A DNA stretch of 50,661 nucleotides from Shigella phage Shfl1. Below, piece by piece: positions 4,588 to 50,236 of the stretch (position 1 is the stretch's first letter; every line of letters starts with the position of its first letter). The notes beneath the pieces are model-generated. The model was not told where the DNA came from and did not search any database. It saw only the letters and a program-made list of their open reading frames with translations. The stretch lies in the sequence record HM035024. One strand, written 5' to 3'. Position numbers and translations under genes: made by a program.

Positions 4588-4858
4588 GTTAAAAATTGCC
4601 CCGATCCATTTCATCGGTGTAATGAACGGCACAAAAACGGCAGAGTTCCGCATTAATGACCGCAACTTCCAGCCTGGCGATATCCTGGAGCTATGCGAGT
4701 TCGATCGGGGTGAGTTTACCAGGTGGGAAGTACATGCCAGGGTATCCGATGTTACAGACGTGACGCCATACATCAATAGCGGGTATGACGAGCAAGAATG
4801 CGACTTCACGCAATACGTGATGTTATCAATAAAACCTTACAGAAAGGTTAGACCATGA
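4571..4858 (+). CDS. ASCH-like (DUF3850-type) domain protein
   Basis: N-terminal pattern K-x-H-x-LKI-x-P-x-HF-x-GV-x-NG-x-KT-x-EFR-x-NDR-x-F-x-PGD matches the ASCH/DUF3850 signature from memory. Confidence 0.4.
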   Translation: MSKTHKLKIAPIHFIGVMNGTKTAEFRINDRNFQPGDILELCEFDRGEFTRWEVHARVSDVTDVTPYINSGYDEQECDFTQYVMLSIKPYRKVRP

Positions 4859-5493
4859 AATTTGAGTGCGTATCAAGTAGCGGATCTGGTTTCAAGTGGG
4901 GTAAGGTCTACGAAGGCGCTCGCGTCAATGACAATAGATTCGTCATCACGGATGAGCGCGGTAGAAATGTTAACGTTGTCCGGCGTCACGAATACCAGGA
5001 AATACTCCTTCCGTATGGCGGTAGCTCAAAATATATCTTCCATCGAATCGTGGATGGTGTTAAATTTAAAGACGTAATCGAAGCAATCAACCAACTGCAT
5101 AATAAAGAGGTCAAATTTATGAAATTCGAATGTATCAGTGATAACACCAAAAAATTTACCGTTGGCAAAATCTACGATGTGCCTACTGAGCACGCAAAGC
5201 ACACTGTAGCACTGACCGACGACACGGGCCGCCACCGCATTGCAACCGTAACGCACAACGGTGAAGGTCTTCGCTGGAATAGCGGCGGCACTAAATTCGC
5301 AACGTTCGGCAAGAAGCGCAAGCGTACTTTCTGCGTCAATGGCAAGGTTACAGCGAACAAGATCCACAACGTCAAGCCGTCAGAAGTTTACCGTAAGCCA
5401 GCGACGAAGTTTGAAGAGAAGGCAGATTTGTCTGGTCTGGCTATCGCTCTTGTTCTCCTTGTTGCTTCGATTTCGCTGCTGTTCATCATGTAA
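4855..5493 (+). CDS. membrane-anchored protein with tandem repeated domain (212 aa)
   Basis: Two copies of a KFEC(V/I)S...GK(V/I)Y module; C-terminal hydrophobic helix LSGLAIALVLLVASISLLFIM. Confidence 0.55.
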   Translation: MKFECVSSSGSGFKWGKVYEGARVNDNRFVITDERGRNVNVVRRHEYQEILLPYGGSSKYIFHRIVDGVKFKDVIEAINQLHNKEVKFMKFECISDNTKKFTVGKIYDVPTEHAKHTVALTDDTGRHRIATVTHNGEGLRWNSGGTKFATFGKKRKRTFCVNGKVTANKIHNVKPSEVYRKPATKFEEKADLSGLAIALVLLVASISLLFIM

Positions 5494-5500
5494 TGCTAAT

Positions 5501-5534
5501 GGGGAATCGGCTCTGAACGGTTCCCCTTTCTTTT
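5501..5534 (+). terminator. intrinsic terminator
   Basis: Hairpin GGGGAATCGG...CGGTTCCCC followed by TTTCTTTT. Confidence 0.5.
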
Positions 5535-6446: not shown

Positions 6447-6650
6447 ATGAAAACTATTACCGGAATGAGCAACGAAACGAGAACGCAGATCGTTAACATG
6501 CTAATCGGGATGGCTGACGATATTCAGAATAGCCATGTCGTTATTGATTCATGCAATCAGACTCGTGAGAGTAAATTTGAATCATCCGGCTACAAAATTG
6601 TTGAAGAAGAATTAACCATCAAAATCATTCGCGTACAGGAGAAAGCATAA
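6447..6650 (+). CDS. hypothetical protein (67 aa)
   Basis: ORF preceded by CAACCAATCAGAGGAAT leader. Confidence 0.5.
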   Translation: MKTITGMSNETRTQIVNMLIGMADDIQNSHVVIDSCNQTRESKFESSGYKIVEEELTIKIIRVQEKA

Positions 6651-7183
6651 TGGATAAAATCACAATTTGGGGTCAGACAATCAACCTGTTTCTCGGCACT
6701 TGCCGCGTGGCAATCTTTGACTTCGACGGAACACTGAGTGACGGCTCAAAACGTCTTCACCTGCTACCGACGAAAGATTTGCACTTGACGGAAAGCTGGT
6801 CTGAGTTTAACAGGGCGGCAATATTTGATAACCCAATCCATAGTACGATTGAAGTGATGAACTCTATGCATGCCTCTGGTCATTATGTGATCATTTTAAC
6901 TGGGCGAAGTGATGAGGTGCGTTACGAATCTGAGTTATGGCTTAAGCATCACGGCGCTCGATATGATTACTTAGTCATGAGGCCGCATACCGACAACCGC
7001 AAAGACACGGTAATGAAAGAAGAGGCTGTGCGCGCGATCGGCATTGATAACATTCTGGCGGCTTGGGATGACTCACCGCAAATTATTCCATTATTCCGTT
7101 CGCTTGGAATAACTACGTATGCTGTAGTTGACTATGGCGATAACGTTCACGATCATTTAAAATATCACGGGGTGGATGAATGA
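6650..7183 (+). CDS. HAD-superfamily phosphatase (polynucleotide 3'-phosphatase-like)
   Basis: HAD motif I FDFDGTLSDG (DxDGT); later motifs IILTGRS and AAWDDSP; resembles the T4 Pnk phosphatase domain. Confidence 0.6.
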   Translation: MDKITIWGQTINLFLGTCRVAIFDFDGTLSDGSKRLHLLPTKDLHLTESWSEFNRAAIFDNPIHSTIEVMNSMHASGHYVIILTGRSDEVRYESELWLKHHGARYDYLVMRPHTDNRKDTVMKEEAVRAIGIDNILAAWDDSPQIIPLFRSLGITTYAVVDYGDNVHDHLKYHGVDE

Positions 7184-7290
7184 ACCTATACGAATTTATT
7201 GCAGCGCATCCGGTATTGACGGTTATCATCCTGTTAATCATCAATCACACTATCATCAATGTGGCAAAATTATTTTTAGGGAGATGCTAA
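7180..7290 (+). CDS. putative 36-aa hydrophobic peptide (MNLYEFIAAHPVLTVIILLIINHTIINVAKLFLGRC)
   Basis: ATGA overlap with upstream stop; hand translated; below ORF-track size cutoff. Confidence 0.25.
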   Translation: MNLYEFIAAHPVLTVIILLIINHTIINVAKLFLGRC

Positions 7291-7291
7291 C

Positions 7292-7864
7292 ATGAAAACA
7301 GCTATCATTTTAAACGGCGCACCTGGATCTGGAAAAGACACTATCGGATGTATCCTGGCTGACACTTACGATCACGTAGCCTTGCGCAGCTTCAAAGCGC
7401 CAATGTTTGAGATTGCCCGGGCAATCCTGGGTGAAGCTAACTACGAGTATTTCATGTTCTTATATGAGGACCGTCGATATAAAGAAGAGCCAGCATCAAT
7501 CCTGAACGGTAAAAGCCCACGCCAGTTTATGATCTGGATTAGCGAGGAAGTCATCAAGCCGCAGTTCGGAAATCGCTTCTTCGGTATGCGAGCGGAAAGC
7601 AAAGTGAAAGAGTCGCACTCCCTTTCGGTATTTACTGACGGTGGATTCAAAGACGAAATCTTGCAGATGATTGAAGGTGATATCCAGGTCAAGCTATGTC
7701 GAATACATCGCAACGGCTGCAACTTCGATAATGACAGTCGAGACTATATCTACCTGGATGATATGATCGGTGTCAACGGTTATCAAGAATGTGACTTCTT
7801 CTCTGTCGAAGGTCATCCAGAAATTACCGCTCATCACATAGCCGCCACATTCATCAATAAATAG
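7292..7864 (+). CDS. P-loop nucleotide kinase (dNMP-kinase-like or polynucleotide-kinase-like)
   Basis: N-terminal Walker A ILNGAPGSGKDT, as in T4 gp1 dNMP kinase and Pnk kinase domains. Confidence 0.55.
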   Translation: MKTAIILNGAPGSGKDTIGCILADTYDHVALRSFKAPMFEIARAILGEANYEYFMFLYEDRRYKEEPASILNGKSPRQFMIWISEEVIKPQFGNRFFGMRAESKVKESHSLSVFTDGGFKDEILQMIEGDIQVKLCRIHRNGCNFDNDSRDYIYLDDMIGVNGYQECDFFSVEGHPEITAHHIAATFINK

Positions 7865-9641: not shown

Positions 9642-9650
9642 TAAATACTA

Positions 9651-9673
9651 ACCCGCTTCGGCGGGTTTTTTTA
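9651..9673 (+). terminator. intrinsic terminator
   Basis: ACCCGCTTCGGCGGGT followed by T7. Confidence 0.7.
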
Positions 9674-39795: not shown

Positions 39796-40509
39796 ATGAA
39801 AGACTTCAATGATATTGAAACCATAGACTTTGCAGAAACTGGTTGCTCATTTACTCGCGAAGCAATAGCATCAGGCGGTTATTATCAGGCGCTAAAAACG
39901 CCAACATGCAAAGAGATTTCAGGTCGTCGATATAAGGGTACAAACACACCTGACGCCGTTCGTGATTTATGGTCGACTCCGCGCGAGGTTATTGCATACC
40001 TTGAGGGGCGATACGGAAAATATGATCTCGACGCTGCGGCAAGCGAAGAAAATAAAGTTTGCGATAAGTTTTATTCTCAGGAAACAAACTGCTTAAAACG
40101 TTGGTGGGGTAAAAATAAGCATGTGTGGCTAAATCCCCCTTATAGCCGACCTGATATGTTCGTCAAGAAGGCGATCGAGCAAATGGAGCACAACAACCAG
40201 ATCGATATGTTGTTACCTGCCGATAACTCGACGGCGTGGTTTACTGAGGCGCGACAGCACGCGGCTGAAATCATCTGGATTGAAGCGGATTTGACTGAGG
40301 ATATCGACGGGAATGAGTACGCACGATCAGGTCGCCTGGCGTTCATATCCGGTGAAACAGGAAAGGCGGTTGACGGCAACAACAAAGGTTCGGTAATTTT
40401 CATTATGCGAGAACTTAAAGAGGGTGAGACACAGCAAACTCACTATATCCCAATCACAAGCATTTGCCCTTCAGTGAAAAACAAACGCGCAAAAGTGAGG
40501 AAATTATGA
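39796..40509 (+). CDS. dam: DNA N6-adenine methyltransferase (phage Dam-like)
   Basis: Catalytic motif NPPYS (WLNPPYSRPDMF). Confidence 0.65.
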   Translation: MKDFNDIETIDFAETGCSFTREAIASGGYYQALKTPTCKEISGRRYKGTNTPDAVRDLWSTPREVIAYLEGRYGKYDLDAAASEENKVCDKFYSQETNCLKRWWGKNKHVWLNPPYSRPDMFVKKAIEQMEHNNQIDMLLPADNSTAWFTEARQHAAEIIWIEADLTEDIDGNEYARSGRLAFISGETGKAVDGNNKGSVIFIMRELKEGETQQTHYIPITSICPSVKNKRAKVRKL

Positions 40510-41593: not shown

Positions 41594-42745
41594 ATGTCAC
41601 AAGCTAAAATCACCACCGAGCAACTTATTGAAGAGCGCATGAGCGGCCTAACACTTCGCGAAATCGCGGAAAAATACGGTATGCACATTCGCACTGTTGA
41701 AGCGCGCCATGCCAAGCTGGCAAAAGAAGGTCATTTTCACGGTAACGAGCATGTTGCTAAAAACGTGCCCGAGGGATTCATGGTAAAAGGCACGTCGACG
41801 ATGATTCGCGGCGATGGGACCGAGGTAGTGCGCTGGGTAAAAACCGATCAGGACCGTGAGAAGATTGCGGCAATGATGGAGGCGGCGCGCATTGCATTCT
41901 GTGAAGACCTGCCGCGAGCAAAGCCAACCGAGCTACTAACCTCGCAAGGGATTACGACAGCGATGGGTAAGCTGGCACTCTATCCGGTATTCGACCTGCA
42001 CATTGGTGCGCTTGCTCACAAGCATGAATGCGGAGAGAACTACTCTACCGACGTAGCCGAAAAAGTGCTTGTCGACTTCTTCAATTACGCGATCGATATT
42101 GCCCCGAACGCAGAGAAAGCTGTTCTGTTAATCGGCGGTGACTTCCTTCACTCGGACGGCCTTGATGCTGTTACCCCGGCAAGCGGTCACGTTCTGGATC
42201 AGGATTCACGATACGCAAAATTGGTGCATGTTGCGATCCGTTCGGTGCGTCGCGCTATCGACAAAATGCTTATGAAACACAAAGAAGTCGAGGTTCAGAT
42301 TATTGAAGGGAACCACGACCAGGCCGGGATGATTTGGCTACGTGCTGCAATGTCGGCATATTATGAAGACGAGCCGCGAGTATTCGTTGACGTTAGCCCT
42401 ATGATTCTGCATAAGACTCGATGGGGAAACACCTTATTGGGATACACTCACGGGCACACTATGAAAAAGGCAGACACGCGACTTGCAGCGATGGCGGCAG
42501 ACTTCCGTGCAGACTTCGGAGAGAGCAAGTATGTGTATACTCATAGCGGTCACTGGCATCATCAGACAATCACTGAACACTCGTTAGGTATCGATGAGGT
42601 TCACGGTCAGTTAGGAGCGAAGGATGCATACGCCGCGCGCGGCGGGTGGCGCTCATATCGTCAGGCGGCGGTAATCGTTTACGATAAACAGTTTGGGGAA
42701 ATCGGTCGGTTCATCTATCGTCCAGAAATGACAGGATCGCACTAA
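41594..42745 (+). CDS. calcineurin-like metallophosphoesterase with N-terminal HTH-like segment
   Basis: Metallophosphatase motifs FDLHIG (DxH), GGDFLHSDG (GD...), EGNHDQ (GNHD/E), HSGHWHH; N-terminal LTLREIAEKYGMHIRTVEARHAKL. Confidence 0.55.
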   Translation: MSQAKITTEQLIEERMSGLTLREIAEKYGMHIRTVEARHAKLAKEGHFHGNEHVAKNVPEGFMVKGTSTMIRGDGTEVVRWVKTDQDREKIAAMMEAARIAFCEDLPRAKPTELLTSQGITTAMGKLALYPVFDLHIGALAHKHECGENYSTDVAEKVLVDFFNYAIDIAPNAEKAVLLIGGDFLHSDGLDAVTPASGHVLDQDSRYAKLVHVAIRSVRRAIDKMLMKHKEVEVQIIEGNHDQAGMIWLRAAMSAYYEDEPRVFVDVSPMILHKTRWGNTLLGYTHGHTMKKADTRLAAMAADFRADFGESKYVYTHSGHWHHQTITEHSLGIDEVHGQLGAKDAYAARGGWRSYRQAAVIVYDKQFGEIGRFIYRPEMTGSH

Positions 42746-49529: not shown

Positions 49530-49548
49530 TTTTAACAAAAAGTGCTAT
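49530..49548 (-). promoter_or_regulatory. conserved motif (minus orientation) overlapping 3' end of methyltransferase-like gene
   Basis: Reverse complement ATAGCACTTTTTGTTAAAA. Confidence 0.4.
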
Positions 49549-50236
49549 TTGCGATTGCTTTGAAAAATCCACGCGGCGACAGCGATCGTATCAACTTCGT
49601 TTTGGCAGACTTGCCGCCCAGCTTGTTATGCTGTGCAGAGTACCCGTCAGGAAGGTTTACAGGTTTTCTCTCCGGCATGACAAAATCGTCCGAGGTCCAA
49701 AGGCACGTCTTTTTCGGGTAAGCATCGCGCGGCGCAATATACATAGGGAACCAGGGATGTGAGTCATTCTCAGGAAGGTAGCCGCCATACTCCCAGGGAT
49801 TGAATGAGTGATCTGGTTTTCTCCAGGCAGATGACAGGACGCTAACCGGATTCTCAATGATGTAGGTCACGCCCAGGGCATCGCCAATATTCGCAGCAAT
49901 CCGTGCGGTTGCAACAGCCTTCTCCTGGAATAACGGATCGCGCTCACGCTTACTTGCAAAGTGCGCGGCACCACTAACAGCCAGGTCGGTGCATGGAGGA
50001 AATGCCATGATGAAATCTGGCTTGCCATACACACCCGCGATCGCATCACGTTCGAACTTCTCATCAATGAAGACGTTCACATACTCAATATTCGGATGCT
50101 CTACCCGGGCGTTGTACTTTGCATAATCTCCGTGATCGGCCCCGTCAAAGTTGAAGCACATTACCTTATGACCTCGCTTAGCCAGTTCATGACCAGCAAG
50201 GCCGGAGCCATCGAATAATGACCAGATTAATTTCAT
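49532..50236 (-). CDS. C5-cytosine-methyltransferase-like protein (short, divergent)
   Basis: Motif-I-like LFDGSGLAG, motif-IV-like FPPCTDLAVSG (Pro-Cys but Thr in place of Gln), motif-VI-like IIENPV; only 234 aa. Confidence 0.4.
   Translation of the reverse strand: MKLIWSLFDGSGLAGHELAKRGHKVMCFNFDGADHGDYAKYNARVEHPNIEYVNVFIDEKFERDAIAGVYGKPDFIMAFPPCTDLAVSGAAHFASKRERDPLFQEKAVATARIAANIGDALGVTYIIENPVSVLSSAWRKPDHSFNPWEYGGYLPENDSHPWFPMYIAPRDAYPKKTCLWTSDDFVMPERKPVNLPDGYSAQHNKLGGKSAKTKLIRSLSPRGFFKAIANSTFC

Follow-up and report, generated by a model that had tools for sequence, protein, structure and literature searches.

Two adjacent genes of Shigella phage Shfl1 (sequence record HM035024) encode a HAD phosphatase and a P-loop kinase, and raise the question of whether their products together heal broken nucleic acid ends or serve nucleotide metabolism. 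The earlier note on this DNA had taken them for a split counterpart of T4 polynucleotide kinase/phosphatase (Pnkp), which could repair tRNA or RNA ends with the help of a host ligase, and had named a dNMP kinase as the fallback for the second protein. The whole stretch of DNA that was analysed, 50,661 nucleotides in length and called here the window, showed 90-97% identity over nearly its full length to Tunavirus and other Drexlerviridae genomes in megablast searches with the region of the pair and with the first 25 kb, and thus represents a complete genome of a T1-like (Tunavirus) phage. Orthologues of the locus are present in phiL and other Tunavirus records at 92-97% nucleotide identity.

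The locus and its genome

The layout of the locus is exactly as had been described (Table 1): a HAD gene and a kinase gene with their diagnostic motifs, encoding separate polypeptides in an order reversed with respect to T4 Pnkp, with the kinase downstream rather than fused upstream, and a hydrophobic micro-ORF of 36 codons in between. The HAD gene is joined to the micro-ORF by an ATGA stop/start overlap, and the ATG of the kinase gene follows the stop of the micro-ORF after a single base. By their family matches (see below), the two large ORFs are well above what chance would produce. All three lie among small plus-strand genes between two terminator-like hairpins, directly upstream of the terminase genes. 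In the stretch from the HAD gene to the kinase gene, our consensus scan found no comparable plus-strand terminator-like site with a T-rich tail; its sole plus-strand match there was a weak 5-bp hairpin at 6700-6713.

Table 1. Positions in the window of the genes and terminator-like sites discussed in the text
Feature	Position	Strand	Remarks
HAD (DxDxT) phosphatase, stand-alone, assigned to the Pnkp 3'-phosphatase lineage	6650-7183	+	177 aa; FDFDGTL at residues 23-29
Micro-ORF, hydrophobic, 36 aa	7180-7290	+	MNLYEFIAAHPVLTVIILLIINHTIINVAKLFLGRC; GRAVY 1.36
P-loop kinase, assigned to a sister family of T4 gp1 dNMP kinase	7292-7864	+	190 aa; GAPGSGKDT at residues 9-17
phrog_704 metallophosphoesterase with N-terminal HTH, annotated 'DNA repair exonuclease'	41594-42745	+	Probable third partner
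Terminator-like hairpin upstream of the plus-strand early gene run that holds the pair	5501-5526	+	9-bp stem, 6 GC pairs, T-rich tail (consensus scan; weak)
Terminator-like hairpin ending the early gene run, directly before the small terminase gene	9650-9667	+	7-bp stem, 5 GC pairs, then TTTTTTAT (consensus scan)

Among the non-structural ORFs, PHROG scans identified a RecE-like exonuclease VIII, Erf, SSB, a primase, two helicases and two methyltransferases, in addition to a 'DNA repair exonuclease', lysis genes and unknowns; the structural ORFs were assigned through the annotation of relatives. No ligase was found by these scans, which covered all non-structural ORFs of at least 100 aa and the early ORFs, and the window has no unassigned ORF long enough for one. 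Thus, the earlier statement that a ligase is missing stands at the level of protein families. Its other half, that no ligase-like KxDG motif occurs anywhere in the window, does not: ORFs of 80 aa or more contain K.DG seven times, where relatives have annotated portal, capsid, tail and regulator genes, and these occurrences are chance matches. None of the four proteins (HAD, micro-ORF, kinase and metallophosphoesterase) matched a defence system in PADLOC.

Families of the phosphatase and the kinase

The HAD protein scored 63.4 bits on the Pfam family HAD_PNKP (cut-off 27.6) and matched phrog_415 at 1.2e-64. Its only significant sequence relatives in the PDB were Pnkp1 of the Capnocytophaga RNA-repair complex (4XRP) and T4 Pnk (PseT, 1LTQ/5UJ0), and its nearest structures were likewise RNA-repair enzymes. 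In the alignment with T4 PseT, the nucleophile D165 and the acid-base D167 correspond to D24 and D26 of the HAD protein, and R176, S211, R213, D254, K258, D277 and D278 to R35, T84, R86, D119, K123, D140 and D141, respectively; the roles of these residues in T4 Pnkp have been described (PMC3592404). The protein thus has the DxDxT HAD domain with the catalytic residues that mark a T4-type Pnkp. As the catalytic residues correspond to those of PseT, it is very probably an active Pnkp-type phosphomonoesterase, and its placement in the T4 Pnkp phosphatase lineage is supported by family, fold and catalytic residues, all of which it shares with the T4 enzyme. In contrast to PseT and Pnkp1, it is a separate polypeptide with an N-terminal beta-hairpin and an insert of about 14 residues after motif I (LLPTKDLHLTESW), which is conserved in sequence and modelled with low confidence. 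It further differs from PseT by a Ser in place of R279, by a kinase partner from another family, and by the lack of an accompanying RNA ligase.

Hundreds of Drexlerviridae records label the gene 'polynucleotide kinase'. Judging from the sequence, this is a misnomer, as the protein lacks a kinase domain and is predicted to be only a 3'-phosphatase. T4 Pnkp hydrolyses the mononucleotide 3'-dTMP besides polynucleotide ends (PMC3592404), and therefore membership of its family does not fix a polynucleotide as the substrate of the HAD protein. The protein had no Pfam match to NT5C (PF06941) or to HD (YfbR-like, PF12917), which places it outside the 5'(3')-deoxynucleotidases, and BLASTP against a Vequintavirus NT5C protein was insignificant beyond a stretch of 26 residues.

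The kinase matched phrog_139, 'deoxynucleoside monophosphate kinase', at 1.4e-46 over profile positions 82-260; T4 gp1 matches the same PHROG at 1.8e-65 over positions 83-261. Neither phrog_505 nor phrog_2071, the PHROGs matched by T4 PseT, was matched by the kinase. The earlier note had called for profile searches to tell a Pnk-type kinase from a dNMP kinase, and the Pnk half of this choice found no support. Direct searches detected the P-loop alone, but the family profile of the window kinase aligned with that of T4 gp1 over 152 columns (98.2% probability, E 2.9e-14). With the T4 Pnk kinase domain, the alignment was limited to 26 P-loop columns, although the single T4 PseT sequence used here is a weaker and asymmetrical control; no homology to T4 Pnk residues 1-150 as a domain was seen. 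When the kinase family profile was compared by hhalign with a single T4 gp1 sequence, only the P-loop aligned as well, and the scores with a local HMM were 19.8 bits for T4 gp1 and 11.3 for PseT, so that the clear assignment came solely from the alignment with the gp1 family and not from single-sequence comparisons. The best structural match of the kinase was also T4 gp1 (PDB 1DEK), and its neighbours among viral models in Foldseek are named dNMP kinase. Full-length homology and a common fold therefore join it to the gp1-type dNMP kinases, in a family of 5215 representatives at E <=0.001.

The kinase is not a typical member of this group. It fell below the threshold of Pfam DNMK (PF21448) and was unlisted there even at E up to 1, compared with 357.9 bits for T4 gp1 and 74-86 bits for short relatives. 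Like T4 gp1 and T5 Dnk, it has the GKD(T) variant of Walker A, but it is 50 residues shorter than gp1 and lacks the gp1 insert. Counterparts of gp1 R132, D175, E181 and R197 are found in R77, D116, E122 and R140, whereas R177 and H206, invariant in gp1, are replaced by G118 and R150, and the acceptor could therefore differ. The kinase has invariant features of its own, K35, K89 and a DGGF motif. These comparisons place it with the gp1-related dNMP kinases and not with the polynucleotide kinases, and they set it apart as a distinct sister group of gp1. The substrates of T4 gp1 are dGMP, dTMP and hm-dCMP, and T5 Dnk accepts all four dNMPs (PMC10653934).

The likeness to the two T4 Pnkp domains thus held for the phosphatase, while that of the kinase went no further than the P-loop, and the former fallback, a dNMP kinase, is to be preferred. 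In a true split end-healing system, the kinase would phosphorylate 5'-OH ends and the HAD protein would remove 3'-phosphates, so that tRNA or mRNA cut by anticodon nucleases could be repaired with a host ligase. The bona fide Pnkp-type phosphatase with its RNA-repair relatives fits such a function, as do kinase-phosphatase fusions present in some phages (see below); moreover, mammalian PNKP has the same order, phosphatase followed by kinase. In an SP6-like group, a kinase homologue even has a Metallophos protein on one side and an ATP-dependent DNA ligase on the other, an arrangement that echoes bacterial Pnkp, in which kinase, metallophosphoesterase and ligase-like domains are combined. Against it, besides the family assignment of the kinase, stands an invariant Lys35 after beta-2; Pnk-type hydroxyl kinases have an essential Asp35 in the segment after beta-2, and we infer that the two positions are equivalent. 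Most kinase homologues in the broad, seed-based sample described below have no Pnkp-type partner. We know of no E. coli RNA ligase that would seal 3'-OH/5'-P ends, and the RtcB of this host requires unhealed 3'-P/5'-OH ends. Because of the kinase family, the missing phage ligase and the lack of a host ligase known to us for healed RNA ends, the repair of RNA ends proposed earlier is hardly to be expected.

Linkage of the two genes and a probable third partner

To what extent the two genes belong together can be judged from 80 loci on viral contigs, whose kinase homologues range from close to moderately distant. In 73 of them, a HAD_PNKP gene lies upstream of the kinase gene on the same strand, at a distance of 0 to about 2.2 kb; in the other seven, the kinase gene occurs without it. 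Two natural fusions were found in the representative library, P0085 (403 aa, present on three contigs) and P0153 (461 aa), both with the HAD part N-terminal and the kinase part C-terminal, and with both halves clearly orthologous to the window genes. The conservation of gene order and the fusions in the same order support the view that the genes are truly linked and form a real functional pair. The pair also travels as a unit between genomic positions: in Webervirus it sits after a 'DNA repair exonuclease' gene, beside lysis genes, and in Kagunavirus K1ind3, which is unrelated, it is embedded in the tail-gene module.

If the two proteins had unrelated jobs, their adjacency would merely reflect an inherited Drexlerviridae gene order, together with occasional gene-calling artefacts. 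The loci without the HAD gene and the intervening genes, which may span up to 2.2 kb and in T1 include an HNH endonuclease gene, agree with this, as does the occurrence of each gene alone in other phage families. However, the pair shifts together between two Drexlerviridae positions and into the Kagunavirus module, and the fusions are found on several contigs, with the domains intact on both sides, which makes such a coincidence quite improbable.

The micro-ORF is another matter. It is kept in frame in close Tunavirus relatives, where 33 of 57 substitutions fall on the third codon position and 40 are synonymous as opposed to 17 non-synonymous, although these are not independent counts. It had no family match, and is missing from the approximately 30 loci in which the HAD and kinase genes abut (gap 0-3 nt). 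In phage T1 its slot, between the two enzyme genes, is taken by a 164-aa HNH endonuclease, and in other genera by hydrophilic small ORFs. The micro-ORF is probably a real gene for a small membrane protein at an insertion hot spot. It is a lineage-specific insert confined to Tunavirus and no core part of the enzyme pair; a role as a linker or regulatory part was rejected in view of its absence from the abutting loci and its replacement elsewhere.

A third gene is associated with the pair, even though in this genome it is located about 16 kb away (Table 1). Its product matched phrog_704 at 4.8e-157, and in alignments combines an N-terminal HTH with the invariant DxH, GD, GNHD and GHxH motifs of calcineurin-like metallophosphoesterases; its match to Pfam Metallophos was below the cut-off, and a PDB profile search gave nothing beyond the HTH. 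BLASTP detected no relation between it and the Metallophos protein of the SP6-like group. A phrog_704 homologue lies directly upstream of the HAD and kinase genes in 33 of the 80 loci, and also in Webervirus. In Kagunavirus K1ind3 it directly precedes the HAD gene, and on a contig with the P0085 fusion it directly follows the fusion gene; each of these homologues is 45% identical to the window ORF. The cassette of nuclease, HAD and kinase genes is thus found in three arrangements. As the phrog_704 homologue adjoins the HAD and kinase genes across lineages, the ancestral unit was likely nuclease-phosphatase-kinase, from which the nuclease gene later became separated in Tunavirus.

The nuclease could also point to a function in the processing of DNA ends, in which it would clean damaged or blocked ends, such as 3'-phosphate breaks made by host nucleases, together with the HAD protein for recombination-dependent replication, and the kinase would ride along, supplying dNTPs. 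The tight cassette with overlapping genes in Webervirus and Kagunavirus is consistent with this, and the window encodes the RecE-like exonuclease VIII, Erf and SSB. The 3'-phosphatase of T4 is reportedly tied to DNA metabolism by early genetics (Depew and Cozzarelli in 1974). Polynucleotide 3'-phosphates are, in addition, a substrate of the T4 Pnkp phosphatase (PMC3592404). On the other side, the fusions unite the HAD domain with the kinase and not with the nuclease, which suggests that HAD and kinase share a substrate stream. The nuclease gene is remote from the pair in this window, and T1 infection has no known source of DNA ends with 3'-phosphates. We consider DNA-end processing a possible, though unlikely, function of the three genes.

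Genomic contexts and a possible role in nucleotide salvage

Outside Drexlerviridae, both genes keep company with nucleotide metabolism, as their neighbours indicate. On a T4-like contig, a gene for a YfbR-like HD 5'-deoxynucleotidase overlaps that of a kinase homologue, which is followed by ThyX and occupies the position of gene 1 beside a gp2 homologue. Another kinase homologue is overlapped by a dCMP deaminase gene next to a DNA polymerase gene. In Vequintavirus, the kinase homologue is followed by an NT5C-type deoxynucleotidase with a match above the Pfam cut-off, ThyX and RNR; such pairing of NT5C with the kinase was seen in 5 of 80 loci of the broad sample. A Krischvirus with a normal pseT and rnlA has, in addition, a stand-alone paralogue of the HAD gene, which overlaps nrdB. 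Mostly, however, no phosphatase was detectable beside the kinase in the 80 environmental loci of the broad sample; neighbours were detected there with single-sequence phmmer seeds, which miss divergent phosphatases, and 'no phosphatase' is to be read as a lower bound. Searches for loci with single distant kinases returned few of them. This prevalence of loci with no detectable phosphatase indicates that the kinase is an autonomous enzyme.

The kinase-deoxynucleotidase-ThyX clusters of Vequintavirus and T4-like phages, and Dmp/Dnk of T5, resemble the window pair in combining a kinase homologue with a phosphatase in overlapping genes. Their phosphatase is, however, an NT5C-type HAD or a YfbR-type HD 5'-deoxynucleotidase, with genes of dTMP synthesis adjacent, whereas the window has a Pnkp-type 3'-phosphatase in a phage devoid of ThyX, RNR and polymerase. 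By analogy with these clusters, the HAD protein could be a mononucleotidase of 5'(3')-dNMPs and the kinase could act on other dNMPs, both of them setting the dNTP pool. The direct pairing of kinase homologues with NT5C-type enzymes and with YfbR-type ones near ThyX speaks for it, and so does a near-threshold match of the HAD protein to Acid_phosphat_B (25.5 bits, cut-off 27), class B acid phosphatases being nucleotidases. In addition, the extra segment after motif I occupies the insertion site of those HAD caps that confer selectivity for small substrates. Nevertheless, the HAD protein lies outside NT5C and every 5'-nucleotidase family, its closest relatives act on 3'-phosphates, and a 5'-nucleotidase fused to such a kinase would be in danger of cycling futilely, so that pool balancing of this kind seems unlikely.

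The reading of the HAD-kinase pair as a nucleotide-salvage module, and not as a split RNA-repair enzyme, is the best of those considered here, and in our estimate about evenly poised between right and wrong. Both T1 and TLS break down the host genome, put its nucleotides to new use and lack a gene for DNA polymerase; the genes behind this degradation and reuse have not been identified (PMC11447400). In the KanT1 paper, the position of the pair after an exonuclease gene had already been noted, with the proposal that the pair 'enhances nucleotide supply' (PMC13164509). In a salvage pathway, the metallophosphoesterase would be the likely upstream nuclease, yielding fragments and mononucleotides. 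The HAD protein would strip 3'-phosphates from DNA ends, 3'-dNMPs or 3',5'-bisphosphates through an aspartyl-phosphate intermediate on D24, which would unblock the digestion of fragments and avoid unusable 3'-nucleotides, so that the products would become 5'-dNMPs ready for the kinase. The kinase would then convert the 5'-dNMPs of the degraded host chromosome to dNDPs with ATP, and host Ndk would convert these to dNTPs for the replication of T1 by host polymerases. These substrates, this order of steps and the sharing of one pathway by the three proteins are what we infer from the observed family membership, conserved catalytic residues, linkage and fusions, and from the company kept by relatives.

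Salvage is favoured by the phrog_139 match and profile homology to gp1, by the structural neighbours among dNMP kinases, by the contexts with ThyX, deaminase, deoxynucleotidase and RNR, by the Pnkp-type family, fold and catalytic residues of the HAD protein together with the action of T4 Pnkp on 3'-dTMP, by the HAD paralogue that overlaps nrdB, and by the linkage, the fusions and the three-gene cassette. Several points argue against it: the kinase fails the Pfam DNMK model and has lost gp1-invariant R177 and H206; synteny within one phage family is, taken alone, a weak argument; and most kinase homologues of the broad sample have no seed-detectable phosphatase as a neighbour. Furthermore, typical exonucleases already yield 5'-dNMPs with 3'-OH ends, so that it is not obvious why salvage should call for a 3'-phosphatase, and all four NMP kinases are already present in E. 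coli.

The same three proteins might alternatively constitute one mobile machine, in which the gp1-like kinase had been recruited to phosphorylate 5'-OH ends of DNA or RNA, and which, with host LigA sealing, would counter host nucleases that leave 3'-P/5'-OH ends. This we regard as highly improbable; if true, polynucleotide end healing would have evolved independently in a third form. As components of nucleotide salvage, the pair and the phrog_704 nuclease offer a concrete, testable candidate for the pathway by which T1-like phages reuse the nucleotides of host DNA; beyond this candidate pathway and the correction of annotation, the locus would represent ordinary phage nucleotide metabolism.

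The pair itself is already known at the level of annotation. The 'PNK' and 'dNMP kinase' genes of T1, TLS, KanT1 and Webervirus are the same orthologues, with no substantive difference from those of the window, and papers on T1-like genomes treat them under nucleotide metabolism on the basis of annotation (PMC11447400, PMC13164509). Literature searches on the biochemistry of enzymes from T1 and of Pnkp-type phosphatases that stand alone yielded nothing but papers on genome annotation, and a paper on retron Eco2 was set aside, as it concerns T4 PNK only as a laboratory reagent. To this annotation, the present analysis adds the correction of the 'PNK' label, the placement of the kinase in a separate family, sister to gp1, in which invariant residues are altered, the natural HAD-kinase fusions, and the linkage of three genes rather than two across phage families.

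The gene slot between HAD and kinase

In phage T1, an HNH-type homing endonuclease gene takes the place of the hydrophobic micro-ORF that lies between the HAD phosphatase and kinase genes in the window, and other relatives carry inserted genes totalling up to 2.2 kb in the same slot. The slot between HAD and kinase is thus an insertion hot spot.

In Shigella phage phiL, the closest relative, a full-length HAD homologue is present (HMM match at 4189-4638 of L001) despite the shorter annotated CDS. A 78-bp insertion separates the phiL HAD gene from its version of the micro-ORF, which is extended and GTG-initiated.

Features of the window (Shfl1) and of loci carrying relatives (L-numbers)
Feature	Location	Strand	Length (aa)	Remarks
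HNH-type homing endonuclease	L006 5465-5959		164	phage T1; replaces micro-ORF
HAD gene as annotated	L001 4312-4719		135	phiL; CDS from internal codon
Stand-alone Pnkp-type HAD paralogue	L089 3998-4474		158	Escherichia virus KFS-EC (Krischvirus, T4-like)
phrog_704 'DNA repair exonuclease'	window 41594-42745	+		HTH plus calcineurin-like motifs
phrog_704 protein	L184 1848-2978
phrog_704 protein	L185 1889-3019
phrog_704 protein	L087 9340-10500
Unknown function, phrog_10580	window 4855-5493	+	212
DNA methyltransferase, phrog_111	window 39796-40509	+
DNA methyltransferase, phrog_757	window 49532-50236	-

HAD and kinase homologues in other phages

The stand-alone HAD paralogue of KFS-EC is 34% identical to the window HAD, and its gene overlaps the end of nrdB; about 3.7 kb from this paralogue, the phage also encodes a normal pseT and rnlA. 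In the SP6-like contigs L047, L057, L066, L073 and L139-L141, the kinase homologue gene has the gene of a Metallophos protein on one side and that of an ATP-dependent DNA ligase on the other, and the ligase start overlaps the kinase stop. This gene arrangement recalls the domain content of bacterial Pnkp.

Several kinase homologues (P0118, P0123, P0138, P0145, P0173 and L091 3689-4582) are extended by 100-120 residues at the N- or C-terminus, and these extensions had no Pfam match. The N-terminus is Cys-rich in one extended homologue and bears a phrog_26149 segment in another.

The phrog_704 protein and other genes of the window

Searches of Pfam and PDB found no relative of the phrog_704 protein. 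In Webervirus and Kagunavirus its gene forms a tight three-gene cassette with HAD and kinase, and in a 60-kb contig it adjoins a natural HAD-kinase fusion.

The phrog_10580 ORF seems to hold two copies of a unit of about 95 aa; both begin with MKFEC[VI]S, and each has a GK[VI]Y motif. The two methyltransferase genes, from different phrogs, are carried separately by this one 50-kb genome.
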